The notes beneath the pieces were generated by a model, which did no database searches, was not told the DNA's origin, and worked only from the letters and a program-made list of their open reading frames with translations. DNA of 64,000 nt from an uncultured Nitrososphaeraceae archaeon. Lineage in GTDB: Archaea; Thermoproteota; Nitrososphaeria; Nitrososphaerales; Nitrososphaeraceae. Position numbers and translations under genes: made by a program. Shown here in pieces: positions 4,256-40,570 of the stretch (within the stretch, counting starts at the first letter, position 1; each line of letters opens with the position of its first letter). The stretch is from assembly GCA_963729045.1 (NCBI GenBank), contig CAVSMN010000009.1, forward strand, positions 32,001-96,000, read 5' to 3'.

Positions 4256-4519
4256 ATGACATTACCAAAGGGATTTGGTTCACAAACTAATACTCAAAAG
4301 AACAGAACATTTGATGAATGGTGGGCAACCGTACCCGGAGATTTGAAAACAAAAGCTCGCAAGGGCGATGAAGCCAACAAGGTTTTATTGAATCAGGTAA
4401 ATTATGTATTACTCCATCTTCATCTTCAGGGTAAACATGATACAAAACCATCACATGAAGAATTAAAAGACTGGCTTCATAGTGGTCAAGTAGACGTAAT
4501 GCGTCAAATCAAAAAATAA
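4256..4519 (+). CDS. Small His-containing helical protein with N-terminal MTLPKGFG extension; paralog of 57071-57292
   Basis: ORF; near-identical second copy in the window; followed by a T-tract. Confidence 0.85.
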   Translation: MTLPKGFGSQTNTQKNRTFDEWWATVPGDLKTKARKGDEANKVLLNQVNYVLLHLHLQGKHDTKPSHEELKDWLHSGQVDVMRQIKK

Positions 4520-4624
4520 TATTTTTTTTAAAGTAATATTTTTTTATTATATATTTAATATAACATAAAAACAACAAAAATAAAATATATATAAATATAC
4601 TATTAGATAAAAAGTATTCGAGTT

Positions 4625-5317
4625 TTGAAGAGAGGTAGTCATATAGCAATTTTCGATACTTTTAAAACTCATCAAGCAAAATCAACTAGAGAATCCAAGA
4701 GACAAAGAGGAATAATAGCACATATAGCGTTAGAAAAAGACCCGAGTGGAAAAACTAGGACTTCAATAGCTCATATTTTAGCCAAGAAATATGGGGTAGC
4801 CTGGCAAAATATTTACTCGGCTATTTTTAAAGATCTTGACGAGGTATTGATACCCGCAAACGTAGTAAAAGAGGGTGGCAGATTGCCAATAAAAAGGGGT
4901 CCAAAAGCCCTTCAAATTGAGGGAATACCGTACTATGAGCTCACTAATACAGGCCTTATAATTGCATCAACCATTGAGGAAACAGGTGACATTAGGTTGC
5001 GAATGAAGCTGCTTGAGCTTTACCTTTTGAATTCAAATGCGAATAATACAAGCATTAATGAAAATAATAGTATAATAAATGACGGAATTTTATTACTATC
5101 ACGATATGCCCCGACCTTTATTTTGAAAATAATAAACGAGTACATTGTGGCATATAATCGTGGAGAAATAGAAAGACTAGATAGGCTTGACATTGAAAAT
5201 CTTAAGAAGGTTATATCTAATCAAATAACAATTGAAAAAGAATTGGTAGAGGCCTGTATGGTGTTATCTAATGATAAGAAGGAAGTATTAAAGAACTTTA
5301 TAGAAAAGATTAGTTAA
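4625..5317 (+). CDS. Putative winged-helix DNA-binding protein
   Basis: TRTSIAH...WQNIYSAIFKDL...PYYELTNTGL wHTH-like pattern. Confidence 0.6.
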   Translation: MKRGSHIAIFDTFKTHQAKSTRESKRQRGIIAHIALEKDPSGKTRTSIAHILAKKYGVAWQNIYSAIFKDLDEVLIPANVVKEGGRLPIKRGPKALQIEGIPYYELTNTGLIIASTIEETGDIRLRMKLLELYLLNSNANNTSINENNSIINDGILLLSRYAPTFILKIINEYIVAYNRGEIERLDRLDIENLKKVISNQITIEKELVEACMVLSNDKKEVLKNFIEKIS

Positions 5318-5334
5318 TGAATGGCATCGAGATG

Positions 5335-6264
5335 CTATCTCAGGTAATGAACCGGTATTATTTTTAGATCAAATGCCAATTCGGTATGAAAGAATACTGA
5401 TTTGGCTTCATCTAATAAGATATTTAGATCTTTATATCTACTGCTAAAGTGGGTCAGACATAATCTATGTACGGAAGCCATTTTAGCTAGAGTTGCAGTT
5501 TCGATGGCAGTAGAATGATAGGATTCGATTGCCTTTGTAAGTTCATTGGATGAGAATGTTGATTCGAAGATCAGTAAATCACAATTTCTAAAAAAATCGC
5601 ACAGACTGTCAGATGGACGCGTGTCTCCAGAAATACCAATTTTCCTACCAGGTCTTGTAGGACCAACAATATCATGAGAATAAAATAATTTATCATCATA
5701 AATGACATCAACACCTTTTTGAAGTGAGCCATACAATTCTCCTTCAGGAATACCTAATTCTTTTGCTCGTCTCGCGTCAAATTTTCCGGGCCTATCATTT
5801 TCAAGCAAACAATATGCATATGAACAAATATTAGGACCATGTTCGGATTTACAGTATAATATCTTATAGTCCTTCTCCACTACAACAGTTCCTTGAGAAT
5901 TAGGAATTACATGAATGTCTAGTTGAAAAGTTAATTTGATGTGGAGCAATTTCATGTTCTCAACTAAGAAATCATATATTAGTTCTGGACCGAAAATATC
6001 AACCGCGGCCTTCCTACCTTGTAGTGATAGTGTTTGTAGAAAACCCAATATGCCCAAAATATGATCAGAGTGCATATGAGTAATGAATATCATAGTTTTC
6101 TTATTAAACCCCAATCCAGTACGAATAAAATTATATTGCATCCCCTCCCCGGCATCAAAAATCAACAAAGTCCCATTTCTATTTACTACAAGAGAAGAAA
6201 GTGACCGGTCTACTGCAGGCATCGCTGCAGACGTTCCAAGAAAAATAACTTCGAGATTTACCAT
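5335..6264 (-). CDS. rnz: Ribonuclease Z (tRNA 3' endonuclease)
   Basis: FLGTSAAMP, FDAGEG, THMHSDH, exosite GIPEG, SGDTRP, HST, THFSSRY. Confidence 0.95.
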   Translation of the reverse strand: MVNLEVIFLGTSAAMPAVDRSLSSLVVNRNGTLLIFDAGEGMQYNFIRTGLGFNKKTMIFITHMHSDHILGILGFLQTLSLQGRKAAVDIFGPELIYDFLVENMKLLHIKLTFQLDIHVIPNSQGTVVVEKDYKILYCKSEHGPNICSYAYCLLENDRPGKFDARRAKELGIPEGELYGSLQKGVDVIYDDKLFYSHDIVGPTRPGRKIGISGDTRPSDSLCDFFRNCDLLIFESTFSSNELTKAIESYHSTAIETATLAKMASVHRLCLTHFSSRYKDLNILLDEAKSVFFHTELAFDLKIIPVHYLR

Positions 6265-6271
6265 CTAATGC

Positions 6272-7174
6272 TCAATCACGTGATAAAATAGAGGACAAGG
6301 TTTTTGCAATCTCGCTACTCAAATCAATCTTTGAACAGGATCTTGGGATACTATTGGTAGAAACAATCTCATTTATTCCAGAACTCTTTAACAAATTTAT
6401 GGATTTCTCATCCGACAGGGCATGAACGCACATCACAAAGACTTTGCCGCAACTATTATTTTTTAATATATCCACAGCCCTGAGTATAGTTCCTCCACTA
6501 GATACCATATCATCAAGAATCACAATATCTCGATTCGTAACTGAAATATTTAGTTTTTCATCCATGGTAATATTTCCAGTGAATCTATCTCTATTTTTTC
6601 TTAACCCAAGGAAAGAAGCATTCATAATTCCAGCAAACTCTTTTGCTCTAGGAACTCCTCCAAGGTCTGGTGATACAATAATAGGTTCTGTTAAATTAAA
6701 ATTGTTAATGGCATATTTTGCCAGTAATGGCATAGAAGAAATATTAAAAATGTCATAATTGAAATAAGATAATGCCTTAGTACTGTGTATATCAACAGTT
6801 ATCAGATTACGAGTTCCAAAATATCCAAACAGTTTTGCTATCATAGACATGGTCACAAATTCTCCTTCCAGAAATACCCTATCCTGTCTAGCATAACCCA
6901 TGTAAGGGATAACCGGAATAACTTCAGAAGCGCCAGAGTCGTTACAATATGACAACATCATCAATGTCTGTAAAAAATGCGAATCTACAGGGGGATAAGT
7001 AGATTGTACAACAATGCATTTTTTATCAAGTAAATTCGCATTAATTGTTATTTTACTTTCTCCATCAGAAAAAGTGCGTAATTCGACTTCAACAGGATCA
7101 ACATTTAAACACGAAGCAATAGAATTCCCCAATTCTATCGAAGAAGGTCCCGGCAATACGACTACATCTTTCAT
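6272..7174 (-). CDS. prs: Ribose-phosphate pyrophosphokinase
   Basis: FSDGE, PYMGYARQD, VDIH, SPDLGG, LDDMVSSGGT. Confidence 0.95.
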   Translation of the reverse strand: MKDVVVLPGPSSIELGNSIASCLNVDPVEVELRTFSDGESKITINANLLDKKCIVVQSTYPPVDSHFLQTLMMLSYCNDSGASEVIPVIPYMGYARQDRVFLEGEFVTMSMIAKLFGYFGTRNLITVDIHSTKALSYFNYDIFNISSMPLLAKYAINNFNLTEPIIVSPDLGGVPRAKEFAGIMNASFLGLRKNRDRFTGNITMDEKLNISVTNRDIVILDDMVSSGGTILRAVDILKNNSCGKVFVMCVHALSDEKSINLLKSSGINEIVSTNSIPRSCSKIDLSSEIAKTLSSILSRD

Positions 7175-7481
7175 GACATGATTGAAATGATATGAGAATC
7201 TTAAAAATGTTGAACTATTAATAATATCTTATATTAAGTATGTTCGAATTTCTACAATAGATCAATTGGATTGATATAACTGATATGTATATCCGATTTG
7301 ATATCAATGTTCACAAGAATACACATTGGAAAAACATGATAAAAAATCAGGCAAGATCGCGAGAACATCCATACTTAGGAATGTGATTGAAAATTATTTA
7401 CCACTTTATGTTATAAATATGTAGAGATCAATTTGATACAATTATGTATCAGTATAAAATCATATTGTGCAATATATATAT

Positions 7482-9596
7482 CTATTGCTTAATAATCAGC
7501 AAGACCTCAGAATCAATTTTATCTAACTGTTCTCTAATAGCTTGAACTACTTGTTCGTTCGCGTTTAGGCTAGAAAAATCCAATAGTTGAAACCCATCAA
7601 CCAATTGAACATTTGGAGATAGATCAGAATTTGAGGAAAATTTAGAAATAATTGATGGGAGATCTGCAGACATTTTGGTTGAAAAGCCATGCATCAGTTT
7701 GCCATTATCCAAAGAGAGGCGCACTCTCCCAAATTTATCTAATATCAATATAGATTGCATTCTTGTTTTAAAGAATAATTTTTTTTTCTGATAAGTATTC
7801 ATAAAAATATAATAATTTCCTAGTTTATGTTCCAAAGTAATGTCCCCATCATTATGAAACAAGGTTTTTGCAATCTCTACTACTTCCTCTTGTTTTAACT
7901 CTCTAGAACCGACATTATTTAAGTCTAGAGTAACATTACCGATAACAGTGACTCTCAAAATTGAACGATCGCTTATATATTCCGATTGAACAGATAGTGA
8001 ATCAGGAGATGCATTTTTTCTAATAGCTACATCTTTAATCTCCGTTATTAATTGAGTAACATCTTCTGGAGTAGGATTATTAATGGTTTTCTCTTTCTCT
8101 TCATAAATCATTCCTGTGGCTACACCTATGGATGAAATGACATCGGCGTAATCTGCTTTTTTGTATTCAAAACTGAGTTTCTTAGCAACAAGTGGTACCA
8201 AAACGGAAGCACCTCCTCCTCCCCCGATAACCACTATTCTATTCTTTGATAATTTGTACTCTTTTACCATTGGAATTATATAATCCGATATCTTTGAAAC
8301 AGAAATATCTAGAACTTGACTAGCAATTTGCTCAGGCGACATTCCCATATAGATAGCCAACTTCGTAAATGCAATCCTAGCTGAATCCGCATTTCCATAT
8401 GCATTATCATTTTTTGGGATGAGACCTAATGCATTAGCGGCACATGTGTTGGTGATCCCGTATGCTTTTCCTCCAGGAACTTTGATACTAATATAGTCAT
8501 TAGGATCATTATTCAATGGACTAATAGGTACAATTTCACCCTTTATCAATTCATCAGGATCGGCAAAACAAGAATACTCTAATCCTGCAATGTGTGAGGA
8601 TCGAGGACCAACATCAATAATCTTTCTCTTTGATGAAAGTCTCAATAAAGACCCCCCAGCAACCCCACAAATTCTTACATCAAGTGATCTTATACAAGTT
8701 GGATGTTCCATTATGTTCACATAACGCATTTCAGGCTTTCCATCCTTAATTATACTGATGTTAGTTGAAGTACCACCAACTTCTATAAATATGCCTTCTA
8801 AAACCTGTAAGAAGAGCAAAGCGCCTACAACACTTGCAGCTGGACCTGAAAGCACTGTTATTATTGGCTTGTGCAAAAAAGAATCCAATGTGGTTACACC
8901 ACCATCACCTTTCATTATCATTACTGGTACATTTATGCCTAAGTTATTGACTGCAGATTTAACATAATTTGCGGTACTTGTGGCTTTTGGAAGAATGCTA
9001 GCATTAATTGTTGCTGTCAAAGTTCTGATCTCTAATCCATAAATTCCAGTTAATTCATGCCCGGCAGTACAAGGAAGTTTAGAATGCTTCATTACAAATA
9101 ATTCGTTACTTGGATCATCAACTCCGAAAGCCTCACTTACAACTATGGATTGAGCTCCCTCTGAAACCAGATTCTCTATGGATTTTTCGATCCCAGGCTC
9201 CTCTAAATATTTAGAGGTATCCAAAAAGGTATAACAGGTTCTAAGAAATTTATTAGAATTTAGGGATATATCTTTAATATGAGTTCTTTTCACGACATTT
9301 GTTTTTTCCATTCCTACCCCCATTCCAATAATGCCAACTTTTGATACGTCTCCCTCAAGAAAGGCGTTGACAGCTTGGGTGGTACTATGAGAAATTAACT
9401 CTATTTCTTTATGGTCTATGTTGCACATCTCAATTAATGTGGATAAGGCGTTAACAATGCCTACAGAAACACCGCCTTCTAAAGAGTGTGTTGTTGAAAC
9501 AGATTTTTTTCCTAGTATTTTTTTTTCAATTACGTCAATAGCTACGGCTTTGGTAAAGGTGCCCCCTACATCTATTCCGATCCTAATTTTTTTCAT
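7482..9596 (-). CDS. Hydantoinase A / 5-oxoprolinase ATP-binding family protein (no B subunit adjacent)
   Basis: IGIDVGGTFTKAV, HSTT, LSGPAASV, EVGGTST, AGGS motifs. Confidence 0.85.
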   Translation of the reverse strand: MKKIRIGIDVGGTFTKAVAIDVIEKKILGKKSVSTTHSLEGGVSVGIVNALSTLIEMCNIDHKEIELISHSTTQAVNAFLEGDVSKVGIIGMGVGMEKTNVVKRTHIKDISLNSNKFLRTCYTFLDTSKYLEEPGIEKSIENLVSEGAQSIVVSEAFGVDDPSNELFVMKHSKLPCTAGHELTGIYGLEIRTLTATINASILPKATSTANYVKSAVNNLGINVPVMIMKGDGGVTTLDSFLHKPIITVLSGPAASVVGALLFLQVLEGIFIEVGGTSTNISIIKDGKPEMRYVNIMEHPTCIRSLDVRICGVAGGSLLRLSSKRKIIDVGPRSSHIAGLEYSCFADPDELIKGEIVPISPLNNDPNDYISIKVPGGKAYGITNTCAANALGLIPKNDNAYGNADSARIAFTKLAIYMGMSPEQIASQVLDISVSKISDYIIPMVKEYKLSKNRIVVIGGGGGASVLVPLVAKKLSFEYKKADYADVISSIGVATGMIYEEKEKTINNPTPEDVTQLITEIKDVAIRKNASPDSLSVQSEYISDRSILRVTVIGNVTLDLNNVGSRELKQEEVVEIAKTLFHNDGDITLEHKLGNYYIFMNTYQKKKLFFKTRMQSILILDKFGRVRLSLDNGKLMHGFSTKMSADLPSIISKFSSNSDLSPNVQLVDGFQLLDFSSLNANEQVVQAIREQLDKIDSEVLLIIKQ

Positions 9597-9682
9597 ACCT
9601 TTTGCTCACTCGCTTTCATAAAAACCAGAAAAACGTTTGTTTCATGCATTCCAAGTAATTTAAATGCTACCATATCGAAGAG

Positions 9683-10486
9683 TTACATTTGTAGTGAGAC
9701 ATCAAATATTATTTCTTTGATTCCCATATATCTAAGGATTGACTGAAAGTTTTTTTTATCTGCAGAAACAAGAATTTCGAGCTTGCCTTTGCTATTCTTA
9801 TTCTTATCCAAGTCTCCAGTATATTTGAGATAATTCTTCACATCTTTTGCAACTTCAGCTGAAGAATTGATGAACTTTATAGAGGGTAAAATAGCTTCAA
9901 TATAATTTTTAACAAATGGTAAATGGGTACTACCTAATGCAATAACATCAATCGTGTTATCAATATTTGAGTCAATTATTTCTCGGATTTTATCATAGGT
10001 AAATTTCTGATCAAATAAAAATGATCCACTTTCAACTAGATTAATAATCTCTGAAGAATCTACCTTATCCACAAAAATCTGTTGGGGTATTTCTTTTTTT
10101 ATCAAGTAATTGAACTCTTTGCTATCAAGTGTACCTTTTGATGCCATTATTGCTATGTGTTTTTTCCTACTCAAGTTTATTGTCTTATCAAGCGGTAGTT
10201 TTGTTGAAATGATAGTTGTCGAAAAATTGTTCTTGATTTCATCATAAATTTGAACAGATGGGGTATTTGATGCCATTACTATTAGTTTTGGCTGATATTT
10301 CTCCAAAAATTTGATGGATTTTAGTATTATTGACTTTAATTCACTCTTAGTTTTATTTCCATACGGAAAATTCTTTTTATCTGCAAAATACAAAATATTC
10401 TCAGAGGGAATAATCTTCCTCAATTCTCTCACAACAGATAGCGAACCCAATCCTGAATCAAAAACTGCAATTGGCCTATATAGCAT
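9683..10486 (-). CDS. murI: Glutamate racemase (MurI)-like protein with Ser at both catalytic Cys positions
   Basis: IAVFDSGLGSLSV and FPYG.K motifs; ASNT and LGSTH in place of ACNT and LGCTH. Confidence 0.85.
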   Translation of the reverse strand: MLYRPIAVFDSGLGSLSVVRELRKIIPSENILYFADKKNFPYGNKTKSELKSIILKSIKFLEKYQPKLIVMASNTPSVQIYDEIKNNFSTTIISTKLPLDKTINLSRKKHIAIMASKGTLDSKEFNYLIKKEIPQQIFVDKVDSSEIINLVESGSFLFDQKFTYDKIREIIDSNIDNTIDVIALGSTHLPFVKNYIEAILPSIKFINSSAEVAKDVKNYLKYTGDLDKNKNSKGKLEILVSADKKNFQSILRYMGIKEIIFDVSLQM

Positions 10487-10529
10487 AATTAACAGTATCT
10501 AATAAGAGGTAAAAATGTTTGAAATATAA

Positions 10530-10997
10530 TTATTTTCCAATACAACAATTACCCTCAGGGATATGATATCCATGTGGACAAATCTTGGGATGTTTTAACA
10601 GGGTACATAGTGCATCGGTAAAAATTTCTTTCATATGATGCTCAATGCCACAAACCATCTCTTCATCTACATCGATTTTTAAGGCATCTTTCATAAGTAC
10701 TTCTAACAGTCGAGTGTTTCGTATCATTTTTTTCCCGATGTTCTCACCCTCTTTTGTAAGTGTCACTATGGAACCCTTTTTATAATCAATTAAAAGAGAA
10801 TCATTTAACTTATGAAGCATTTGAACCACCGATGGTTGTGTAACATTTAAAATTTTGGCTATGGAACTAACCTTTAACTCTTGGCCACTTTCTGAAATAG
10901 ACCACATTGCCTTCAAATACATTTCAACATGCTCGGCTTCTGCGGTGCCTACATACAATTGCTCTGGGAGTCCAGAATTTTTCGAATAAACAGTCAA
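10530..10997 (-). CDS. DtxR/MntR/IdeR-family metal-dependent repressor
   Basis: EMYLKA, IAKILNVTQPSVVQMLHKL HTH, RLLE, CGIEHH, CPHG..IP. Confidence 0.92.
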   Translation of the reverse strand: MTVYSKNSGLPEQLYVGTAEAEHVEMYLKAMWSISESGQELKVSSIAKILNVTQPSVVQMLHKLNDSLLIDYKKGSIVTLTKEGENIGKKMIRNTRLLEVLMKDALKIDVDEEMVCGIEHHMKEIFTDALCTLLKHPKICPHGYHIPEGNCCIGK

Positions 10998-11792: not shown

Positions 11793-13457
11793 CTATTTTA
11801 CTACAATCTCACCAACCATCGATGGGTGGTAAACACAGTAATAATCAAAAGTACCCTTATTATCAAATTTAAAGCTGAACGCTTGTTTTGAAAGTATAGC
11901 GTCCGAATCAAACAATTGACCTTCAGTAGGATCGCTGTCTGATCCGGAAGTAGCAGTATGCGATATGGTATCTGCATTATACCATGTAATTGTTTCACCT
12001 GAGTTTATAGTAATTGGATTTGGTGCGTATGAGTTGTCACCGCTGATGCCATTAATTGTTACCAGGACAGAACCTTCAGGTACAACACTAGATTGTGATG
12101 ATGGAGATTGAGCTTTTGGAATGGTACTTTGTGAGGTGGGCAATATTTTGTACAAATCCCCTGTATAGCTTAGGACATACATATACCCGTCAGGTCCTAC
12201 CTGGATATCGGTAATTCCACCGAAACCTTGTCCAAACGTAATTGGGATACTTTCAACAGGATTATCCACTTTTTTATCAGTTAATGCAGCTGCACCCCCT
12301 ACATTCGTGTTATTTATGACAATATCATCGCGTGCCTCATTTAAAGTAAATCTATATAAATTACCATTATTAATGTCACCTACAAACATATCATTTTCAT
12401 ATTCTTTACCCAACTTATCTGAATTCAAAAATTTTAGTGCAGTCGGACCTATAGGAATATGCCAAGCAAATTTGGGTTCTGCATATTTTCCGTTTCCAAA
12501 ACTCACAAGATCATTTGGTGTTGCCCCGTTACCCAACAGATCATCGTTAGAGAATCCTTGAATTAAGGACCAACCACTATTAAAGCCAGGAAAAACCAGG
12601 TTAATTTCATCGCCCGCTGTAGGACCATTCTCTGTATCCCATAAATTACCAGTCATAGGATCAAAATCGATACCGAAGCTATTTCTAATACCCATTGCAT
12701 AGTATACACCTAAAGGCAAGTCAGCACCAAAGATTGGTTCATCATCAACTAATCCACCATCTTGAGAAATTCTGAGAACGCCGCCTAAGCCATTAGGTGC
12801 TGGACCATTTCCTATATTTTGTGCTTGAGTCCTATGACCTCCTACTTCCCCCATTATCATATAGACATTATTGTCCGGTCCAATTGTTACTTTACCTCCA
12901 TTATGATCAGTTCGATTAAGATTATTTGGAATTGCAGTCAAATCCAAAAGGAGGACAGGATCTATTAATTTACCGTCCACATATTGATAACGATAAAGTC
13001 TATTTCCTAATGGGTCGATATTATTGGAAACATCACTACCATCCTCATTATTTCCAGATTCAGTGTAGGACAAGAAAACAAAAATTTTTCCATCCAAGTG
13101 ATTTGAAGCAGCAATCCCCAATAATCCGCGTTCGATTTTTGAGGCCACAGATAGATCAAGTAAGGGATTATCTTGTACCTGACCATCCAATACTCTCATA
13201 ACCCTCCCAGTATTTTTTTCAGTAACCAATATATCATTATTTCCCACAAAAGTCATGCTAGTTGGAAATGTCAAATCGGAAGTAACTTTTTCAACTGTTA
13301 GGCTATCATCATTGATTGTAGGTCCATCTGGGGAGGGCTGAGCTTTAGAGTAAGCTCCATAAGAAAAATAAACGGAAGAATAATTTGAAGATAATAGTAT
13401 TAAAATGATTGCGAAAGAATAAAACAACAGTTTAATGTTATACACAAGTCTTATCAA
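11793..13457 (-). CDS. Secreted PQQ-dependent glucose/sorbosone dehydrogenase family beta-propeller fused to a C-terminal type-1 Cu cupredoxin
   Basis: Signal/anchor; ERGLLG, HNGG, GIRNSFGIDFDP, TENGP..GDEIN; C-terminal HTATSG...YYCVYHPSM. Confidence 0.88.
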   Translation of the reverse strand: MIRLVYNIKLLFYSFAIILILLSSNYSSVYFSYGAYSKAQPSPDGPTINDDSLTVEKVTSDLTFPTSMTFVGNNDILVTEKNTGRVMRVLDGQVQDNPLLDLSVASKIERGLLGIAASNHLDGKIFVFLSYTESGNNEDGSDVSNNIDPLGNRLYRYQYVDGKLIDPVLLLDLTAIPNNLNRTDHNGGKVTIGPDNNVYMIMGEVGGHRTQAQNIGNGPAPNGLGGVLRISQDGGLVDDEPIFGADLPLGVYYAMGIRNSFGIDFDPMTGNLWDTENGPTAGDEINLVFPGFNSGWSLIQGFSNDDLLGNGATPNDLVSFGNGKYAEPKFAWHIPIGPTALKFLNSDKLGKEYENDMFVGDINNGNLYRFTLNEARDDIVINNTNVGGAAALTDKKVDNPVESIPITFGQGFGGITDIQVGPDGYMYVLSYTGDLYKILPTSQSTIPKAQSPSSQSSVVPEGSVLVTINGISGDNSYAPNPITINSGETITWYNADTISHTATSGSDSDPTEGQLFDSDAILSKQAFSFKFDNKGTFDYYCVYHPSMVGEIVVK

Positions 13458-16645: not shown

Positions 16646-19072
16646 TTATCCCCCCTTTTGTTCCTTCTTATCTTTTTCGGCCACGGACTTTCTCATCGAG
16701 GCTATCTTTTGTTGTCGTCTAGGTTGAATAAATAGAATATAGAGAGACCCACCCAGATATATTGCAAGTAAGATGAGTTGAGCCACCACGGTTTCTACTG
16801 TTGGGTGGATCCCAGTCATCGTTGCAACATTAATATCTAATCGAGGTACTATGTTATATATAGGAGTAGTAGAAATCCATCCAAGTTCCTGAAATTCACG
16901 TACTGCATTACCTAAGAAGGTTATTGACATAAAAGCTCCAACTGCCATGGTAAGTCCAAACAAAACTCTTAATGGTAATTTCCTTCCCAGTTTTCGAATT
17001 ATGAAGACAACTGCAATTATTACAGCCATGCCCAATACTAACCCTGCAAGTACGTATATCTCCATATATTTTGCAAAAGAAAATAGAGCTTGATAAAACA
17101 AGACTGTTTCAAAGCCTTCCCTATACACAGTAAAGAAAGACAACAAAACAAATACCATAAAACTACCTGTAGTCGTTGCTTGCCAGACTTTAGCCTTAAC
17201 AAATTCAATCCATTTCTTAGTTTCAATCTTGTTTAGAACCCAGAAGCTGACCCAGAATAGCACAGCTACTGCAGCGATGCCAGCAATAGCCTCAATAAGT
17301 GCTCTTTGTGCACCAGATATTTCTATTATAAATTGAGCAATAACCCATGTTACAGCAGTCAGTGCTATAGCAAGCACAATTCCAGCGTATACATGCTTTT
17401 TGAACTTTTCATTTCGCGATGCTTCCAAGTATGTCAAAATGGCACCTAGTATCAAGGCAGCCTCCAAACCTTCTCTAAAAATAATTGAAAATGATGAAGA
17501 AAATGCAATAGCAGGTGCAACTACCCCGATACCTGAAACAAACCGTTCGGATTCATCTAATCCACTTTTAAGTTCTGCAATCTTGGAAACGACCTCATCA
17601 GATGGAGCATTTGACGAAATGAGGTTGCGTAATTCAGCAAATTTTATCTCCATTTCGAGAGTAAAATCTGGATCAATTGGTCTTAAGGGTATTTCAATAT
17701 TTTCATAACTGTCAAGATATGCAGATCTAGCGGTTGCTAATGCTTGAGAAGTATCATTTTGATTGTAGATAGATATTACCTCATCCAATTTAAGTCTGAT
17801 TTTATCTATATCGTTACGAACCTGACCCTTGAAATCTTCCGAGGCTTCGCCCATAGAACGCCTCTCTCCCGTGTAAACTCCAAACCCTTGTTTTAGAGAA
17901 TCAATATTGGCAGTATTCGTAACAAAAGAAGATGGTATTGTAAAATTATTGTTTGACTGTGCAGCACTGGGGGTACTTAGCAACTGTTTGGAAACTTGCA
18001 GATCATCTTTTATGTTAGAAATATAAGCTTCAATGTCAGCAAGTGAGGTTTGATTTTTGATTAAAGCACGCAGATTTTCTCTCATATTTGTTTCTATTTG
18101 CAACATTAAGGTGGAATTTACTTCTTCGATTGGGGCTTCAAGGTATTCAAAATTATCTAAATACGCAGAGGATACATTTTTGTCTGCAGCAAGATAATTA
18201 CCATTTTGAATGGAGGAAATTGCATTATTTAGCAGAATATCTATGTTATCATAATATACCTGGAGGGATGGATCAACGGTGCTAGTTGTGCTTGGCATAC
18301 GAATATTATTAGATTCATTCAGATCATTCTCTATTGCAGAAACTATTCTTGAAAATTCTTGCGTATTATCACTTTTGGAATCTATTATTGTATTCAAATT
18401 TGTGATAAAATATTCTATCTCATTAGATTTTGCATCAGTCATATTTGGTTTTAATATTTCAAAAATTGTATTTGATTGATTCATCAATCCTCTTGTATTC
18501 TCATAATCTATCATGCCAAAGTTTGCAGCATCAGCGTCGGCAATTTTTGAAGAGTTCAAATATAACCCATATGAATTAGAAGCGTCTCTTAGTAGATATG
18601 ACATGGTTTGAGATTCAAGAATTGAAAAATCTTGTGCAGAAAGCGTATCTTTCAATTTTGAATAAAAAGCGTTGATTATGTTTTTGGAGTCAGTTAAGTC
18701 AGTAAGAATAATAGGAGAATTGGGATCAGCACGAGATTGTATTCCGACTTCAGTAAGGTTAGATTCCAAATTACTAGCCAATTCTTCATCAACTGCAATC
18801 GCAATAGGTTTAGTCGATGGATAAATTACTGAGTGAGGAATATAAGCGTGCTCGAATAACAGAGAATTGTTATTATTATTTATTTTATTTAATAGGATAT
18901 CAAGTTGCGTATCTATTCTATTTAGATTAATATTCAAAAGCAATAGATCCTCATTTGATATTGTAGGATTTTCAGTAGAAGTAGAATTTTGAGCTAGAAC
19001 ATTATTTACAGATGAAATTGATATATTTGCGATCAACAATAGTAGGATAAAAGTTGCAAGTAGTTTTACCAC
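16646..19072 (-). CDS. FTR1-family iron permease with a large extracellular N-terminal region
   Basis: Two RExxE motifs (FREGLEA, YREGFET) in the TM domain; signal peptide. Confidence 0.92.
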   Translation of the reverse strand: MVKLLATFILLLLIANISISSVNNVLAQNSTSTENPTISNEDLLLLNINLNRIDTQLDILLNKINNNNNSLLFEHAYIPHSVIYPSTKPIAIAVDEELASNLESNLTEVGIQSRADPNSPIILTDLTDSKNIINAFYSKLKDTLSAQDFSILESQTMSYLLRDASNSYGLYLNSSKIADADAANFGMIDYENTRGLMNQSNTIFEILKPNMTDAKSNEIEYFITNLNTIIDSKSDNTQEFSRIVSAIENDLNESNNIRMPSTTSTVDPSLQVYYDNIDILLNNAISSIQNGNYLAADKNVSSAYLDNFEYLEAPIEEVNSTLMLQIETNMRENLRALIKNQTSLADIEAYISNIKDDLQVSKQLLSTPSAAQSNNNFTIPSSFVTNTANIDSLKQGFGVYTGERRSMGEASEDFKGQVRNDIDKIRLKLDEVISIYNQNDTSQALATARSAYLDSYENIEIPLRPIDPDFTLEMEIKFAELRNLISSNAPSDEVVSKIAELKSGLDESERFVSGIGVVAPAIAFSSSFSIIFREGLEAALILGAILTYLEASRNEKFKKHVYAGIVLAIALTAVTWVIAQFIIEISGAQRALIEAIAGIAAVAVLFWVSFWVLNKIETKKWIEFVKAKVWQATTTGSFMVFVLLSFFTVYREGFETVLFYQALFSFAKYMEIYVLAGLVLGMAVIIAVVFIIRKLGRKLPLRVLFGLTMAVGAFMSITFLGNAVREFQELGWISTTPIYNIVPRLDINVATMTGIHPTVETVVAQLILLAIYLGGSLYILFIQPRRQQKIASMRKSVAEKDKKEQKGG

Positions 19073-30376: not shown

Positions 30377-30414
30377 GAAATTTCTAAAAAAGAAGGTAAA
30401 TAGGCTATTGAGTG

Positions 30415-33441: not shown

Positions 33442-34368
33442 TTGTTTCAATATATTAAGATTAAAAATGTAGCAATCATAAGTGCATTTATTGTCTTTAT
33501 TATTAGTTCTTCGACATCATTTGGTTTAAATAATAAGATTTTTGCTGCCCCCATTGACCTGCCTAAAGTCAGTCTGAACCATAATGGAGGCATAACTGAT
33601 CTCAGCCCAACATTAACTGTGAAAGATAAAATAATGACCAAAGTCGGTCAACCAGAGGACACGGAGACTATTGAATATAAATCGTTAATATATGCTATAA
33701 ACAGGGGAGATCAGATATCGTTTAACTTTGAAGAGGAGCCCTCTCAAGTTGATGCTTTTCTCATAGATTACGAAACAGATTATAGCACTTTATGGGCCTT
33801 AGAAAAAACGCCAACCGGAGAGTATATTGCAAATACTCCCTCACCTGGTCTTTACAATCTCGATGTACATGCTATATATCCAGACGGTGAATACGTATCA
33901 TACTCTAAGTTACTCAACGTTGTAGATAACAATCTCAATCTTCTAAGTTTAACTCCTCAAAATAATCAATGTGGTAACGAGGTAACACTGGATAAGTTAA
34001 CTGCAAGTGGCAATCCAGCTACAAGCATTTTGAATCAAGTAATTAATCAGCCATTAATTAAAGAGTTGTCATTTGGGATTATCGATGAATTGAACGTCCA
34101 ATTAAATGATGTTAAAAACATTTGTGGAATTCAATTAGGGCTCAAAAATTCACAAAATGATATCAATTTCTTTGCAGTACAAAGTTCAACAGACGGATCA
34201 CAATATTCTGATCCAATAGTTTTTGCAAACACAGGATTCAGCGGTGAGTTACCAGAAATGTACATATACCCATCTTCAGTTGAAGCCAAATTCTTAAAAT
34301 TAATTCCTCTTGGAGGTACATTGGAAAAAGGCTTAGGAATTACTGACTTTAAGTTATTTGGTCAGTAA
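33442..34368 (+). CDS. Secreted protein with an Ig-like and a C-terminal galactose-binding-like domain
   Basis: Signal peptide; FAVQSSTDGSQY...AKFLKL resembles the CBM32 domains of the divergent neighbour. Confidence 0.65.
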   Translation: MFQYIKIKNVAIISAFIVFIISSSTSFGLNNKIFAAPIDLPKVSLNHNGGITDLSPTLTVKDKIMTKVGQPEDTETIEYKSLIYAINRGDQISFNFEEEPSQVDAFLIDYETDYSTLWALEKTPTGEYIANTPSPGLYNLDVHAIYPDGEYVSYSKLLNVVDNNLNLLSLTPQNNQCGNEVTLDKLTASGNPATSILNQVINQPLIKELSFGIIDELNVQLNDVKNICGIQLGLKNSQNDINFFAVQSSTDGSQYSDPIVFANTGFSGELPEMYIYPSSVEAKFLKLIPLGGTLEKGLGITDFKLFGQ

Positions 34369-34420
34369 TGCCTAAGGCAATGGTTTAAAACATAAAAAAT
34401 AATAAGCTTATTTTGAATTT

Positions 34421-34912
34421 TTATGTTTGAATTTGAACAATAAAATCAATTTCTACTGGAGAATTTAACGGTAAACTATTTACTCCTACAGCTACTCTAG
34501 AGTGTCGGCCTAGATCTCCAAATACCTCAATAAGGAAATCTGAAGCTCCGTTAATGACTTTTGGATGATCCGTGAAAGCATCATCACAGTTAACGTAACC
34601 TGTTATTTTGACTATTCTTTTTACTTTATCCAAGTCACCAATAAGGCTCTTAATAATAGAGAAGGCGTTTAAACAACAAATTTTACAAGCTAGTTGAGCA
34701 TTCTCGATTGAAACTTGTTTGCCCACTTTACCTCTAAATTTCAGGTCGTTTGATGAAGAATTTATGTCAATTGGAAGTTGACCTGAAATAAAAACTAGAT
34801 CGTTGACATTTACTATCGGGACGTATGAACCTAATGCTTTTGGTTTTCCAATTGGAATAACAAGATTCAAAGACTCTATTTTTTTTTCTGGTGTCATGTT
34901 TGAATATTCCAT
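34421..34912 (-). CDS. RidA/YjgF/UK114 family protein
   Basis: FISGQLP, HPKVINGASD, GRHSRVAVGVNSLP..PVEI. Confidence 0.92.
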   Translation of the reverse strand: MEYSNMTPEKKIESLNLVIPIGKPKALGSYVPIVNVNDLVFISGQLPIDINSSSNDLKFRGKVGKQVSIENAQLACKICCLNAFSIIKSLIGDLDKVKRIVKITGYVNCDDAFTDHPKVINGASDFLIEVFGDLGRHSRVAVGVNSLPLNSPVEIDFIVQIQT

Positions 34913-34980
34913 AATTAGAATTAAAAGGTTAACTTTTGTATTCAGTAACCTTTTTAATATCTTTGACTTTTGTTGTAATT

Positions 34981-35790
34981 ATGTCAAAGGAGGGTGACCT
35001 TCCAAAACTTCCAATCAAAAACAGGAAAATAGGTACTATAGGTATCTCTGTTATTGTGATAGGTTTATCATTGTTATTTATATATATATTGTGGGCATCC
35101 TTTGGGTATATTGGACCTTCGTTCTCATCTGATGTTTTAAATTTGCAACAATCAACTTTAAGAGCCCAATATCACTTACCAGAAGAACCAGTAATTACAG
35201 ATCCTACAGTACTACAAACCCCACCCTCACTTCGCCAGTTTTTGACAGACAATGCAACTAGTGGTTCAACCAATGCAACTAGTGGTTCAACCAATGCAAC
35301 TAGTGGTTCAACCAATGCAACTAGTGGTTCAACCAATGCAACTAGTGGTTCAACCAATGCAACTAGTGGTTCAACCAATGCAACTAGTGGTTCAACCAAT
35401 GCAACTAGTGGTTCAACCAATGCAACTAGTGGTTCAACCAATGCAACTAGTGGTTCAACCAATGCAACTGATCAAGCTTCAGATAATGCTCAAGTATCAA
35501 TAGTTCCAGGAGCATCTACTTTGACCGATACGGCATTCAGTCCAAATTCTATCGAAGTCACTGTTGGTCAAACTGTAGTGTGGACAAACGATGATTCCGC
35601 ATTCCATACAGTAACATCTGGAACTGCTGGTGCAACAGACGTTGGTAAGGAATTTGATTCGGGTCTAACTGGTCCAACAGCACTAACTAGTAAGGGGAAA
35701 ACCTTTGAGCATACGTTCGATAGAATTGGCGATTATCCTTATTTTTGTACCTTACATCCAGCAATGGTTGGCACTGTGATAGTGAAGTAA
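34981..35790 (+). CDS. Membrane-anchored blue-copper (plastocyanin-like) protein on an NATSGST-repeat stalk
   Basis: N-terminal TM helix; HTVTSG...YFCTLHPAM type-1 Cu ligands; likely start ATG at 34981. Confidence 0.88.
   Translation: MSKEGDLPKLPIKNRKIGTIGISVIVIGLSLLFIYILWASFGYIGPSFSSDVLNLQQSTLRAQYHLPEEPVITDPTVLQTPPSLRQFLTDNATSGSTNATSGSTNATSGSTNATSGSTNATSGSTNATSGSTNATSGSTNATSGSTNATSGSTNATSGSTNATDQASDNAQVSIVPGASTLTDTAFSPNSIEVTVGQTVVWTNDDSAFHTVTSGTAGATDVGKEFDSGLTGPTALTSKGKTFEHTFDRIGDYPYFCTLHPAMVGTVIVK
35251..35469 (+). repeat. Perfect 21-bp coding tandem repeat AATGCAACTAGTGGTTCAACC x10 plus a partial unit
   Basis: Read directly; encodes (NATSGST)10-NAT. Confidence 0.97.
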
Positions 35791-36132
35791 AACAAAAAGG
35801 CATTTAATTTGTCTGTCTTCGTTGATGAAATTAAAGACGTAGATATATCCATTAGATTTGTTTAGTGTTCATAGTGGGTTTAAATAATCATCTTTACTCC
35901 AAATGCAGATAAAGAACAACAAAGATAATTGCCACCGGAACAGAGATCTCAACATGAAATTGAAAAGGAGCAAAAGAAAAGAACATAGTTGAACACAAAA
36001 TTCTAGTCTTATGTTTCCTGCTAATCTGTGGTTAAAGATTTACCCATTTTATCTAATTGCGATATTTTCAGAAAGTGTATAAAAAAAGGGATGATCAGTA
36101 CATAATAAATATAATCATGCATCTTCAGAGTC

Positions 36133-38244
36133 ATGGATAATCGTTTTGACAATGCAAAACCCAATTCGTTGATCAAAGAAAATAGTCCCTATCTATTACA
36201 ACATGCTTATAATCCAGTTAACTGGTTGGCATGGAATGACGATTCCATCAATTTGGCAAAAAAAGAGGACAAACCAATCTTTCTCAGCATAGGATACAGT
36301 TCATGTCATTGGTGTCATGTAATGGCACATGAGTCATTTGAAGATACCGAAGTTGCAAAAACCATGAATGAAAAATTCATTAATATAAAGGTCGATAGAG
36401 AGGAAAGACCAGATATAGATGACATATATCAAAGAGCATGCCAACTAGTAAATGGTAATGGGGGTTGGCCATTATCGGTATTTTTGACTCCTGACCTCAA
36501 GCCATTTTATGTCGGTACATATTTTCCAAAGGATAGCAGATATGGTATGCCCGGTTTTACCGAGATTTTGAATCAACTTTCTCAGGCCTATACCCATAAG
36601 AAAAGCGACATAAATAAGACCACCTCAGAATTTGTAGGAGCGCTGATAAACACATCAAAAGATATTTTGATCAACAAAACTGTAGAAATTGACAAGACAG
36701 TTCTAGACGAATCTGCATTAAATTTATTGCAAATGGCAGACTTTATTCATGGAGGTTTTGGAATCGCCCCTAAATTTCCTAATGTATCTAACTTATTATT
36801 TTTGCTTCGTTACTATGATATATCGAGTATTGAAAAATTCCAAGACTTTGTAACTTTAACAAGTGAAAAAATGATCTTCGGAGGGATACACGATCATCTG
36901 GGGGGCGGGTTCTCGAGATATTCGACCGATCAAAAATGGTTAGTACCCCATTTTGAAAAAATGTTGTATGATAATGCATTATTGGTTATTTTGTTTTCTG
37001 AACTGTATCAAATCACCAAGGAAAAAATATTTAGAGATACTGTTGAGAAAACCTTGGATTACATTTTACGGGTGCTTACAAATAAGGAAGGAATTTTCTT
37101 TTCAGCTGAAGATGCAGATTCTGACGGAGAAGAGGGAAAATTTTATGTATGGTCTAAAAGAGAGGTCACCTCAATCATTCAAAATCCTTTACACCAAAAT
37201 ATCTTCTGCGAATACTTTGATATAACAGAAGTAGGGAATTTTGAAGGGAATAACATACTAAATATCAAAACCTCCGACGAACATCTAGCAAGAAAGTATG
37301 GACTAGATGTGAAAGAGGTTAAAAACATCATAGCTGTAAATTCTACAAAGCTTTTTGATATCAGGGAGAAAAGGATAAAGCCTCAAAAAGATGATAAAAC
37401 AATTTTATCATGGAATGCGCTATCCATATCTGCTTTTATCAAAGGTTATAAGATAACGGGTAAAGAAGAATATATAAGAACTGCTCTAACCGCAGTGGAC
37501 GTCATCGAAACAAAGTTAAAATCCAAGGAAGGCTATTTATATAGAATTTATAAACAAGATAAGGCCAAAATACTTGCTTATTTGGATGATTATGCTTTTT
37601 ACATAAATTCTCTTTTGGATCTACTTGAGGTAAAGACAGATCCAAGGTTCATCGAACTAGCATCTTATTATACAGATGTTTTGATAAAGCATTTTTGGGA
37701 CGAACAAGAAAATAATTTCTATTACTCTTCCGACCTGCATGAATCGATTCTCACCAGAACCAAAGTCTTGTATGATTTGGCTTTACCAAGTGGAAATTCG
37801 GTTTCAATATCAAATTTGATCCGTCTTTATCACATAACAGGGAAAAACAATTATTTAGAGATGGCTGAGAAAATGATGAAAGGATCCATATCATCCGCAC
37901 TGGATAATCCATTTGGTTTTGGCTGGTTATTATCATCGACATACCTATATGTTAAGAAACCAACCGAAATTACCATTTTTTCAAAAGATGATAAATCGGA
38001 TATGATTGATAAAATGAATAAGTTATATATTCCAAATGGTATTTTTTCTATTTTACACGAGGACAGCCTGTCAGAAACGCTAGATCAGTACAATTTATTC
38101 AAAAATAAGACACTAATTAAAGAAAAACCTGCTAGCGATTTTGCAATAATATGCAAAGACTTTACTTGTTCGCCTCCATTGACCGATTTGAAAAAAATAA
38201 TGGATATTTTGTCTTCAAATACATCAAAGGAAAGAATTAAATAA
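36133..38244 (+). CDS. YyaL/SPATA20 family thioredoxin-like plus (alpha/alpha)6 domain protein
   Basis: [44 protein letters not shown]. Confidence 0.93.
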
Positions 38245-38265
38245 TTTTTTTATGATTGTATCACA

Positions 38266-39083
38266 GTGTCAATTCTTCCGCAATTCAGATTTTTTTTTGT
38301 CATTGGATTAATTATTTTGGGTATGGGATCAGTTTCTAATATGGATGTTTTTGGTCAAATGGAACAAACATCCAATAATTTTGATAAGGCGAAGTCATCT
38401 AGTGATGAGGCGATTTCTTTAATTGATTCTTTGAAAGGATCATCATTACTTGATTCGGTAGTTGAAGGTATGCAAAATTTTTCTTTCCCGATAGCAAACC
38501 AATCAGATAATAACGACAATGACACTGAACTGAGATCTCGCAAACATTAGACAATGCCTTAAATTATCTTGGACCGAATAATACTACATCAAATATTACA
38601 ACTGTTTCTCCGGATAAAAACAATATTACCATTTCAGATAACAGTAACAATCTAACCAATGATGATATTACTAGCAATAATAACGGTAATAATAACATAG
38701 AAAACATGCAATCTATGATGATACTGCCCTATCCTATGACGATTTCTTCAAAGGATTACATTCCGCTATATAGTTCAATGCCATTGAAAATTTTGAATGG
38801 AAACATTCTCGCAAAACTTCCGTGTAATTCAACTAATCCATTATTGCAAATCGTAGGCACTTCTGCCGATAATAATGTGTTTCCCATTCAGATGAATCTA
38901 GTTTCTAACTTTTCAAAATTAGGGAGTATGTGTATGTACCAATCACTAATTCCCAATGATTTATCCAATCTTTTATATTCACATACGATAACCAATATTT
39001 ATTTATACAATCCGCTTAACTTCTCACTCGAAGTCCCAACAACAACTTCCATTTTTATTGGAATACATAAATTGACAGAGTGA
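38266..39083 (+). pseudogene. Secreted protein split by a 5-bp direct duplication (ACTGA ACTGA, 38524-38533)
   Basis: Removing one ACTGA joins the two track ORFs through an open Asn/Thr-rich linker into 270 aa. Confidence 0.75.
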
Positions 39084-39090
39084 TCATTTT

Positions 39091-39399
39091 TTAGATCGAA
39101 TACATTATTCCACCAGAGACTATAGGAATAGATTCTAAGTTCGACAGATCTTTTATACGAGCGATAATGGCATTGAACCAAAGACTATCGATGCCTTGAC
39201 TCCAAATTGTTATTTTTTTATAGTCCCTTTCTTTCCCTTGATGAAAAAAACCTTTGCAATCTTCGACTGTCATGTTATTATATTTTTGACTAATTTCTTC
39301 AATAGCTAAATTTGCTTCTGATGGCAAATACAATATAGTTAGAGTAGGATATGGAATAGTATCCGCAGAAGTAGATGATGATGATGCATCGTTAGCCAT
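39091..39399 (-). CDS. Hypothetical protein
   Basis: 102-aa ORF with ATG and normal composition. Confidence 0.7.
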   Translation of the reverse strand: MANDASSSSTSADTIPYPTLTILYLPSEANLAIEEISQKYNNMTVEDCKGFFHQGKERDYKKITIWSQGIDSLWFNAIIARIKDLSNLESIPIVSGGIMYSI

Positions 39400-39517
39400 G
39401 GTTATATTATGTTTTAGACTTATATGATGATTTCGTTGAAATATTTAAAAGATTTTGAGACGATAAATCATTGAAAATTCATAAAAGGCTATATGTTTAT
39501 TATTTTAATATAACAAC

Positions 39518-39892
39518 ATGAAGGCTGATCAATTCACAAAAAGCATACTAGATTTAGATAATGATATTTTATTCAGTGGAGTTATTGAAAAATCCGGACA
39601 TTTAAATATTAGCAATCAAAGGGATTCGCTGGACAAACATCTAAAAGGAAGAAATGCGGAACTGATTATTTCTGAATCTGCATATGCAATTGATTTAAGG
39701 AAGGCGTTCATTAAATCTTTTGGAAGTTTAAACTCTATTTGTTATCAATATAGTTCGCTAAAAATATTGATTATCCCAGTCAAAGAACATGTGTTATTCT
39801 TAGTAATCAACAAAAATGTTAAAGCAGATGATTTGACTCAGAAAGTTTACAATATTATTAATTCAACCAAAGAACTGGATTTATACTCTTAA
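39518..39892 (+). CDS. Roadblock/longin-like thaumarchaeal small protein
   Basis: ILDLDNDILFSGVI..SG...LR..F...FG.L pattern, as in 30415-30783. Confidence 0.6.
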   Translation: MKADQFTKSILDLDNDILFSGVIEKSGHLNISNQRDSLDKHLKGRNAELIISESAYAIDLRKAFIKSFGSLNSICYQYSSLKILIIPVKEHVLFLVINKNVKADDLTQKVYNIINSTKELDLYS

Positions 39893-39952
39893 AGAGGTCC
39901 TTTATGATTGAATAAAAAATAACTTGATTTTGTTGTTAGTAATTTATAAAAA

Positions 39953-40570
39953 TTATTCTTTATGGTTCTGATGCTGTGACCAAAAATCTAACAACCTAAA
40001 ATAAGAGGAAGTTGCTTCTTTAATGGTATGAAGATATGCCTCTCGTAATTGTTCCCATAACAAAAAATAGTTAAAATTATTTTCCAAAGTTTTCTCGACA
40101 TATCCTTGTTTCTCATCGAGCCTGTTTGAATTCAAGTTATTTGTAACCAAGGAATCATTTTGTGATTTTTGTAGAATGGCCTTTTGTTCTGCTTCTAGTT
40201 TGGCCTTTTGTTCTGCTTCTAGTTTGGCCTTTTGTTCTGCTTCTAGTTTGGCCTTTTGTTCTGCTTCTAGTTTGGCCTTTTGTTCTGCTTCTAGTTTGGC
40301 CTTTTGTTCTGCTTCTAGTTTGGCCTTTTGTTCTGCTTCTAGTTTGGCCTTTTGTTCTGCTTCTAGTTTGGCCTTTTGTTCTGCTTCTAGTTTGGCCTTT
40401 TGTTCTGCTTCTAGTTTGGCCTTTTGTTCTGCTTCTAGTTTGGCCTTTTGTTCTGCTTCTAGTTTGGCCTTTTGTTCTGCTTCTAGTTTGGCCTTTTGTT
40501 CTGCTTCTAGTTTGGCCTTTTGTTCTGCTTCTTCTTTATTGGGTGTTACGTAACCTTTTGGAAGTGTCAT
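39953..40570 (-). CDS. Charged helical repeat protein: MTLPKGY tag, (EAEQKAKL)x15, amphipathic C-terminal helix
   Basis: ORF with a 24-bp perfect repeat. Confidence 0.8.
   Translation of the reverse strand: MTLPKGYVTPNKEEAEQKAKLEAEQKAKLEAEQKAKLEAEQKAKLEAEQKAKLEAEQKAKLEAEQKAKLEAEQKAKLEAEQKAKLEAEQKAKLEAEQKAKLEAEQKAKLEAEQKAKLEAEQKAKLEAEQKAILQKSQNDSLVTNNLNSNRLDEKQGYVEKTLENNFNYFLLWEQLREAYLHTIKEATSSYFRLLDFWSQHQNHKE
40172..40531 (-). repeat. 24-bp coding tandem repeat x15
   Basis: TGGCCTTTTGTTCTGCTTCTAGTT repeated on the + strand. Confidence 0.97.

Follow-up and report, generated by a model that had tools for sequence, protein, structure and literature searches.

A shared N-terminal heptapeptide on two window proteins

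The window analysed here is a whole stretch of 64,000 nucleotides from an uncultured Nitrososphaeraceae archaeon (GCA_963729045.1, contig CAVSMN010000009.1, positions 32,001 to 96,000 of the forward strand), and its subject is a short N-terminal tag, MTLPKG[FY], with which two otherwise unrelated proteins begin. The first of them, P0001 (4256-4519, plus strand), is a small His-rich protein of 87 amino acids starting MTLPKGFGSQ, in which the tag codons (M1-F7, MTLPKGF; 4256..4276) are followed by a variable polar linker (residues 8-16, GSQTNTQKN; 4277..4303) and by a conserved core predicted to form four helices. The second, P0002 (39953-40570, minus strand), is a 205-amino-acid protein starting MTLPKGYVTPNK, made up of the tag (M1-Y7, MTLPKGY; 40550..40570), 14 EAEQKAKL units and a conserved helical C-terminal part of about 45 amino acids; its units are encoded by a perfect 24-bp tandem array (40177-40532, minus strand; 14.8 copies, 100% matches). 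A third gene, P0003 (57071-57292, minus strand), encodes a 73-amino-acid paralogue of P0001 that has no tag: it starts MVRSFEEWW, with its MVR at P0001 residue 15, and is identical to P0001 residues 17-87 at 65 of 71 positions (92%). The coordinates, the two MTLPKG[FY] starts and the near-identical untagged paralogue given in an earlier note on this DNA were all right, the second and third open reading frames (ORFs) lying on the minus strand.

At the DNA level the tag reads ATG ACA TTA CCA AAG GGA TTT in P0001 and ATG ACA CTT CCA AAA GGT TAC in P0002, confirming that the Leu, Lys and Gly codons differ between the two. M.LPKG was found just twice in the six-frame translation of the window, each time as the start of an ORF, and the tag was present in none of the other 70 window ORFs. 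Among 72 non-overlapping window ORFs, one pair shared residues 2-6, against 0.003 expected from position-specific residue frequencies, and any such pair appeared in 60 of 20,000 column shuffles.

Four unrelated families with the same N-terminus

A genome scan was run on one genome per species with the pattern ATGACAYTNCCNAARGGNTWY, in which the Thr codon is fixed as ACA; the sample was non-random and of unknown order, and its counts are lower bounds. Matches were assigned to ammonia-oxidising archaea (AOA) from the record title, or from the gene family where the title was generic. The AOA class makes up well under 1% of species; of at least 121 matches, 38 among those listed were from AOA, and these comprised AmoX (22), the P0001 family (13), P0002-like genes (2, at loci L029 and L057) and a further family, L048 (1). 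In each of these four unrelated families the tag stood at the start of the reading frame among the matches listed. A strict N-terminal test, requiring an ORF of at least 60 amino acids and no in-frame start upstream, was passed by 29 of the 38 listed AOA matches; eight of the other nine had a possible start codon upstream in a short open stretch, and the remaining one (L029) was cut by the contig end. By the same test, 4 of 83 listed non-AOA matches passed, all of them family 1 glycosidases starting MTFPKGF, and none of the 46 with Leu at position 3 did, most of the latter lying inside ABC-transporter or other genes or in tiny ORFs. On the column shuffles and the strict N-terminal test among the matches listed, chance was rejected as the origin of the shared tag.

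The four families have no common sequence beyond residues 1-9, and in all of them the tag leads into residues that are polar or rich in Gly. The earlier note's claim of a motif common to unrelated proteins and placed at their N-terminus extends past the window, to at least four tagged families (AmoX, P0001, P0002 and L048). The glycosidases were the only listed non-AOA matches resembling true N-termini; their peptide (MTFPKGFLWGG...) differs from the tag in having Phe at position 3 and in running into a catalytic-domain motif, as part of the fold and with no linker, and we regard the likeness as coincidental.

The tagged membrane protein of 98-120 amino acids, found at 22 loci among the scan matches listed, was identified as AmoX by amoA adjacency, its hydrophobic regions, a published peptide and a named histidine. 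In L011 and L014 the next gene downstream, on the strand of the tagged gene, encodes archaeal AmoA (PF12942), an AmoA motif was found downstream in 9 of the 13 AmoX loci with at least 250 nt of flank, and amoA and amoX are usually linked (PMC10030591, PMC13058606). Hydrophobic regions numbered two in the 98-amino-acid soil forms, with an extra C-terminal one in the 120-amino-acid marine form, where the first helix (residues 33-55 by eye) fell under the hydropathy threshold; the loci thus agree with the two (soil) versus three (marine) transmembrane helices described for AmoX within about 100-120 amino acids (PMC3379541). Peptide MTLPKGYGSGGRKGGSGGGGGESR is listed for N. viennensis AmoX (NVIE_027280, 102 amino acids), whose peptide MTLPKGYGSGGRKGGSGGGGGESRDDIER matches the soil-type loci and whose N-terminal peptide MTLPKGYGSGGRK carries the tag (Table S9 of PMC10030591). 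AmoX is also the AmoD of a recent preprint (bioRxiv 10.64898/2026.08.31.748207), and the His67 named there in NmAmoD is H67 of the 120-amino-acid sequences when numbered from the tag Met. A structure search of a copy of the PDB returned no AmoX, its sole match (E = 0.18) being irrelevant.

The AmoX N-terminus, MTLPKG[FY]GS, is identical to the tag, and inspection of AmoX N-termini bore out the start M-x-LPKGFG that the note had given, as did the acetyl-TLPKGY start of N. viennensis AmoX described below. In a sample drawn independently of the tag (phmmer with one AmoX query, cluster representatives at 50% identity; 37 matches, 34 of them AmoX-like), 25 of the 34 AmoX-like representatives were tagged, 24 exactly and one as MTYLKGY, with one of the 25 behind an over-extended start. 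AmoX carries the tag in both Nitrosopumilaceae and Nitrososphaeraceae, and the Gly-rich linker that follows varies several-fold in length.

At E<=0.01, 328 relatives of P0001 were found; those few with a name belong to Nitrososphaeraceae/Nitrosocosmicus, besides generic "Thermoproteota archaeon" labels and one Segetibacter sp. record. Among 122 rows examined (the two window proteins and 120 listed of the 328 relatives), 92 start with MT[LM]PKG[FYH], a count that takes in rare MAYP[KT]GF variants and starts called at MPKG, and the 30 untagged rows start at or beside MVR, MAR or MRK, just ahead of the conserved core. In alignment A1 both tag and core are conserved, the latter with 29 invariant positions that include H54, H61 and H67, and residues 8-16 are variable. 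The AlphaFold2 model of P0001 was weak, with a mean predicted local distance difference test score (pLDDT) of 53.5 and residues 1-16 below 50; P0001 and P0003 matched no Pfam or NCBIfam family, and P0001 had no usable ESM Atlas match. Within residues 50-75 (window 4400-4480), His 54, 56, 61, 67 and 75 are invariant or near-invariant and are accompanied by invariant Asp and Glu; together they might form a metal site, the organism being one that depends on copper.

In a quick tree of the core (68 columns, 122 rows), the untagged P0001-type forms did not make up a single clade but grouped with tagged forms of their own lineage in two starred clades (96 and 99); the tree is poorly resolved, with Shimodaira-Hasegawa-like approximate likelihood-ratio support only and five starred branches, and the careful search is unfinished. 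P0001 and P0003 are 92% identical to each other, against about 70-75% to tagged forms of other lineages, which suggests either gene conversion or homogenisation of the core within genomes, or a repeated origin of the short form. In either case tagged and untagged forms have both been kept, an argument for a role of the tag that the core does not fill. As for the range of the family, a Nitrosocosmicus-type 87-amino-acid gene with its promoter was seen at L072 (contig JACDHC010000238.1, 3 kb), a record titled Nitrosopumilus sp.; the title is probably a binning error, and L072 apart we saw no evidence of the P0001 family in Nitrosopumilaceae.

All seven P0002 homologues found start MTLPKGYV; with the 92 tagged rows of the P0001 family, they place the motif in relatives of both window proteins, where the note would have taken its absence as a refutation. 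P0002 has 14 full EAEQKAKL units and its homologues three to five of the same or a similar octapeptide, and the 24-bp array is young and variable in copy number. The units of relatives may also differ, e.g. EAEEKTKR or ADDKSKQQ. Pfam and NCBIfam gave only low-complexity matches, among them one to the TolA equivalog model TIGR02794 (65.2 bits, cut-off 59.45) that is confined to the charged low-complexity repeats. TolA was rejected as an identity for P0002: the likeness lies in the Lys/Ala/Glu-rich repeat region, and P0002 lacks both the N-terminal membrane anchor and the C-terminal domain III of TolA (no Pfam TolA C-terminal domain). We read the match as a compositional resemblance. Automatic annotation may mislabel P0002 as TolA.

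The fourth carrier, the L048 family, has 301 relatives, and 45 of the 120 listed carry MT[LM]PKG[FY]K, which stands at residue 1 in 24 of them and is preceded by an over-extended start in the other 21. Among the 75 listed relatives with no match to the expression, some are truncated orthologues or have MPKGF starts, and about 65 are distant paralogues that have only the C-terminal helical domain in common and start MSSRKEDKERK, MASRKDN or MSNTRKEQ. This is a second natural contrast of tagged and untagged proteins, so that the untagged control that the note had seen in the window has counterparts in two families (P0001 and L048). Some members end in DUF2795 (Pfam), matches to ApoLp-III were sub-threshold, and the nearest named Atlas clusters were phasin-type with scores of 0.79-0.89, under the 0.9 level; as a lead only, this family of long proteins is possibly phasin-like. 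On the 9.2-kb contig DATDFS010000156.1, L048 and a member of the 87-amino-acid family (L047) lie convergently, about 2.5 kb apart.

The window itself has a G+C content of 33% and consists of ordinary chromosomal genes, and the nearest relatives of its tagged genes are titled Candidatus Nitrosocosmicus. Its genes include an Amt transporter, plastocyanin-like proteins, Val-tRNA ligase-type and CCA-adding enzymes and ribosomal protein S11; a Pfam scan of 68 window ORFs found no amo genes and no shell or compartment genes. Two fusions were seen by Pfam: one at 11793-13457, of a glucose/sorbosone dehydrogenase with a C-terminal plastocyanin-like domain, and one at 16646-19072 (minus strand; 808 amino acids), with an FTR1-type iron permease as its C-terminal part.

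Codons, promoters and the mature end of AmoX

Across the 22 listed AmoX loci the residues of the tag are fixed and their codons vary, Leu being written TTA, CTT, CTA or CTC, Pro with all four codons, Lys with two and Gly with three, and the 13 listed P0001-type loci had a like synonymous diversity (variation at Thr is uninformative, ACA being fixed by the scan pattern). Since the tag codons are diverse and the linker is variable, selection falls on the residues and not on the RNA; conservation at the protein level rather than by DNA copying, which the note had read from two genes, thus holds in both sets of loci.

Upstream of P0001, an A-rich element resembling a transcription factor B recognition element (BRE) and TATA box, aaaaaacatttaata (4215..4229, plus strand), ends 26 nt before the ATG and would be the promoter of a leaderless or near-leaderless mRNA; an element of this type lies at the same distance in the Nitrosocosmicus orthologue loci L009, L046, L072, L098 and L120. 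The putative promoter of P0002 is a BRE/TATA-like element, gaaaaacattaatc (40592..40605, minus strand), ending about 21 nt before its ATG, and a TATA-like element, aaatatttataaag (57314..57330, minus strand), lies about 21-23 nt before the ATG of untagged P0003. In all tagged genes examined, and in the untagged paralogue, an A-rich BRE/TATA-like element ends about 21-26 nt before the ATG. Such spacing is the geometry expected of archaeal leaderless mRNAs.

The promoters bear on two explanations in which the tag would not be a binding peptide. One is that it acts in translation: how efficiently initiation or early elongation proceeds would be set by the nascent peptide, or by the opening codons of a leaderless mRNA, and strongly expressed genes would have converged on the best start or copied it. 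The BRE/TATA-like element of every tagged gene examined, implying leaderless transcripts, is in line with this, as are the common TATA, BRE and start codon described for amoX in 2012 (PMC3379541) and the place of amo genes among the most highly transcribed (PMC10030591). However, the free variation of synonymous codons makes an effect of the RNA sequence unlikely, and untagged P0003 has the same promoter geometry, so that the tag is not required for leaderless expression; moreover, the tag sits on four families among the matches listed rather than on highly expressed genes generally, and the other 70 window ORFs do without it. We consider an action in translation improbable. The other explanation is a passive relic, in which the 5' end of amoX (promoter and first codons) was captured by other genes and its codons have not decayed. 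The similarity of AmoX and P0001 does reach residues 8-9 (GS), and the A-rich BRE/TATA-like elements are alike in all tagged genes, but every family keeps the tag and lets the adjoining linker vary, the diverse synonymous sites point to long purifying selection on the residues, and apart from a generic TATA element we saw nothing that the families have in common upstream. A relic of this kind is very hard to credit.

Published cross-link data from N. viennensis (disuccinimidyl sulfoxide, in-gel, membrane gel band; Table S9 of PMC10030591, first 25-30 entries per query) give the state of the tag in the mature protein. Mature AmoX starts acetyl-TLPKGY there, with high-confidence spectra of TLP[K]GYGSGGR acetylated at the N-terminus; the initiator Met is therefore removed, Thr2 acetylated and the AmoX start codon right. 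A true start downstream of the motif, which the note had named as a ground for rejecting it, is thus contradicted for AmoX by the uncut acetylated TLPKGYGSGGR. The cross-link between AmoX K13 and K5 was supported by 89 spectrum matches (PMC10030591). Among the matches listed, Lys5 of the tag was also joined to AmoC K10, K165 and K180, AmoY K48, K56, K58 and K79 and AmoZ K67; to Amt1 K483, AtpI K212 and NVIE_028080 K304; and to an oligosaccharyl transferase, many S-layer lysines and AmoX K98, and K13 of the linker likewise cross-linked to many partners. From these data the AmoX tag is translated, retained and exposed. Same-residue links (one match for K5-K5, 14 for K13-K13) join two AmoX molecules. 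The N-tails of AmoX from different protomers or neighbouring complexes lay within reach of the cross-linker. For the tail as a whole we infer a cytoplasmic location from an Arg pair before the first helix and from the preprint's helix correspondence, in which the place of the first helices of bacterial AmoC is taken by the first two of AmoD (bioRxiv 10.64898/2026.08.31.748207).

The same spectra raise a further explanation, that the tag is a signal for N-terminal processing and turnover and no localisation label. After Met removal and acetylation, the acetylated end would be shielded once the protein is assembled and would otherwise serve as a degradation or quality-control signal, much as in the Ac/N-degrons of eukaryotes. 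Acetyl-Thr2 of mature AmoX (PMC10030591) and the extreme N-terminal position of the tag in every family speak for such a role, and half-life could differ between tagged and untagged paralogues. Against it, N. viennensis AmoC is N-acetylated at an unrelated N-terminus, AQMPALIPK (PMC10030591), so that acetylation is independent of this heptapeptide; Pro4, Gly6 and the aromatic residue 7 are conserved beyond the known needs of Met excision and acetylation; and no archaeal reader of acetylated N-termini turned up, although no search for one was made. We hold a processing or turnover signal to be unlikely.

Lys-Gly followed by Phe or Tyr is also reminiscent of the [KR]G|hydrophobic site at which archaeal prepilins are cut, and the tag might accordingly be taken for a class III (type IV pilin-like) signal peptide, cut by a prepilin peptidase after Lys-Gly. 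Such peptides combine cleavage after Gly with a hydrophobic H-domain of some 20 residues that follows at once. In the tag carriers, by contrast, the 20 residues after Gly6 are hydrophilic throughout (mean Kyte-Doolittle -0.2 to -2.1 over residues 7-26), hydrophobic segments are missing altogether from P0001, P0002 and the L048 family, and the AmoX peptide was observed uncut and acetylated in many high-confidence spectra (PMC10030591); cleavage of this type is contradicted and scarcely conceivable. A Sec or Tat signal peptide was likewise rejected, there being no hydrophobic h-region in P0001, P0002 or the L048 family. The idea that the tag by itself anchors its carriers in the membrane was set aside by judgement, as it has just two strongly hydrophobic residues and a Lys.

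A putative docking motif and the ammonia monooxygenase

The reading that we favour, tentatively and as a possibility short of an even chance, is that MT[LM]PKG[FY] is an AOA-specific N-terminal docking motif on a polar or Gly-rich linker; AmoX, one of the membrane subunits of ammonia monooxygenase (AMO), would be its ancestral carrier, and it would later have been placed on soluble proteins of Nitrososphaeraceae that share a partner at or near the cytoplasmic face of AMO. An ancestral place on AmoX is suggested because AmoX is tagged in both Nitrosopumilaceae and Nitrososphaeraceae, and an origin there because all 11 marine-type scan matches listed are AmoX. Within Nitrososphaeraceae the motif would then have been put on at least three unrelated soluble families (P0001, P0002 and L048). 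It would act at the protein level as a docking peptide, with Leu3, Pro4 and the aromatic residue 7 as anchors and Lys5 exposed, and its common partner, at or near the cytoplasmic face of the complex, may bring tagged soluble proteins to the site of the AmoX tail. In this respect the tag has the features of a short linear motif: it is short and flexible (a core of seven residues; P0001 residues 1-16 at pLDDT below 50), more conserved than its flanks (a near-invariant tag against a variable linker) and recurrent in unrelated proteins (four families). Recruitment to AMO is a plausible hypothesis. A single complex prediction of the untagged core P0003 (A2) with AmoX residues 1-36 (A3), made to see whether the core is the receptor of the tag, scored 0.00 and 0.01 against a mark of 0.32, and speaks neither for nor against binding.

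Several observations weigh against a docking motif for an AMO partner. For a place of the tag near AMO, the sole evidence comes from AmoX, a subunit of AMO in its own right, and its links to S-layer proteins, AtpI and oligosaccharyl transferase indicate that in-gel cross-links are promiscuous, as the authors also remarked (PMC10030591); they give exposure and a rough neighbourhood only, and do not fix the location or topology of the tag. Peptides of the P0001 and L048 families were not found in the cross-link and complexome supplements of PMC10030591 in the parts available, which is weak evidence given that the sample was a membrane gel band. The number of four families is a minimum from a non-random sample with ACA as the only Thr codon. 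Nine of the 34 AmoX-like representatives have no tag; two of these start at the internal Met of MIGRRVE and most others seem to be fragments or miscalled starts, but P0135 (start MSKKEAPKDEIERMIG, 86 amino acids) is a seemingly complete AmoX without it. Finally, the phasin resemblance of the L048 family, itself a lead only, points away from AMO. Past its start, P0135 shares sequence with a fragment, P0153, that is apparently of the same type; P0135 is a possible natural AmoX control.

A narrower form of the docking proposal places the label at a specific site. The preprint structure contains AmoH, an unidentified, loop-rich subunit modelled as poly-Ala, which forms a trimer closing the cytoplasmic base and is in contact with the C-terminus of AmoC and, on the cytoplasmic side, with the ends of AmoF and AmoG (= AmoY and AmoZ) (bioRxiv 10.64898/2026.08.31.748207). 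The neighbours of AmoH are thus the subunits cross-linked by Lys5 of the tag, which makes the AmoX tail, or its reader, a candidate for the AmoH site; this is a coincidence and not evidence of identity. The tag would then address its carriers to the base of archaeal AMO on the cytoplasmic side, the acetylated AmoX tail (residues 2-8, on its Gly-rich linker) being part of the AmoH density or plugged into it, and the label would have been copied to P0001, P0002 and the possibly phasin-like family for docking on AMO or its arrays. We regard this specific version as distinctly improbable.

Among known systems, AmoX (orf38, also AmoD) comes closest in its MTLPKG[FY]GS start and in its TATA/BRE-like element, which is spaced from the ATG as in the tagged window genes; it differs in being transmembrane, whereas P0001 and P0002 are not its homologues, have no transmembrane segment and show no similarity to it past residues 1-9. 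The cargo-loading peptides of encapsulins and the encapsulation peptides of microcompartments are alike in design, with a short peptide, a flexible linker, unrelated carriers and untagged relatives. Their sequences are not known to resemble the tag, and one carrier of the tag, AmoX, belongs to an enzyme as an integral membrane subunit. Neither the N-terminal peptide of AmoX nor its occurrence elsewhere is mentioned in the available parts of PMC10030591, PMC3379541, PMC13058606 and bioRxiv 10.64898/2026.08.31.748207. The string MTLPKG was not found in a literature search from which figures, bioRxiv supplements and about 1.7 million PMC articles fell outside, and the phrase "N-terminal motif" was absent from the AOA amoX literature searched. 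The public record already contains AmoX sequences, and their common start codon was pointed out in 2012; the tag itself may have been mentioned before.

Archaeal AMO drives much of global nitrification, yet it took until 2023 for its accessory subunits to be identified. In the 2026 structure, one component on the cytoplasmic side has no assigned sequence (bioRxiv 10.64898/2026.08.31.748207). The tag would offer a rule by which candidates for AMO-associated or co-regulated proteins could be picked from the sequence of any AOA genome, the acetyl-TLPKGF peptide is a concrete, synthesisable probe for its reader, and natural pairs of tagged and untagged paralogues are usable as controls. If the address-label reading is true, the tagged proteins would be the first list of cytoplasmic AMO-associated factors; should the tag mark turnover or translation control instead, it would join the few defined signals at archaeal N-termini.

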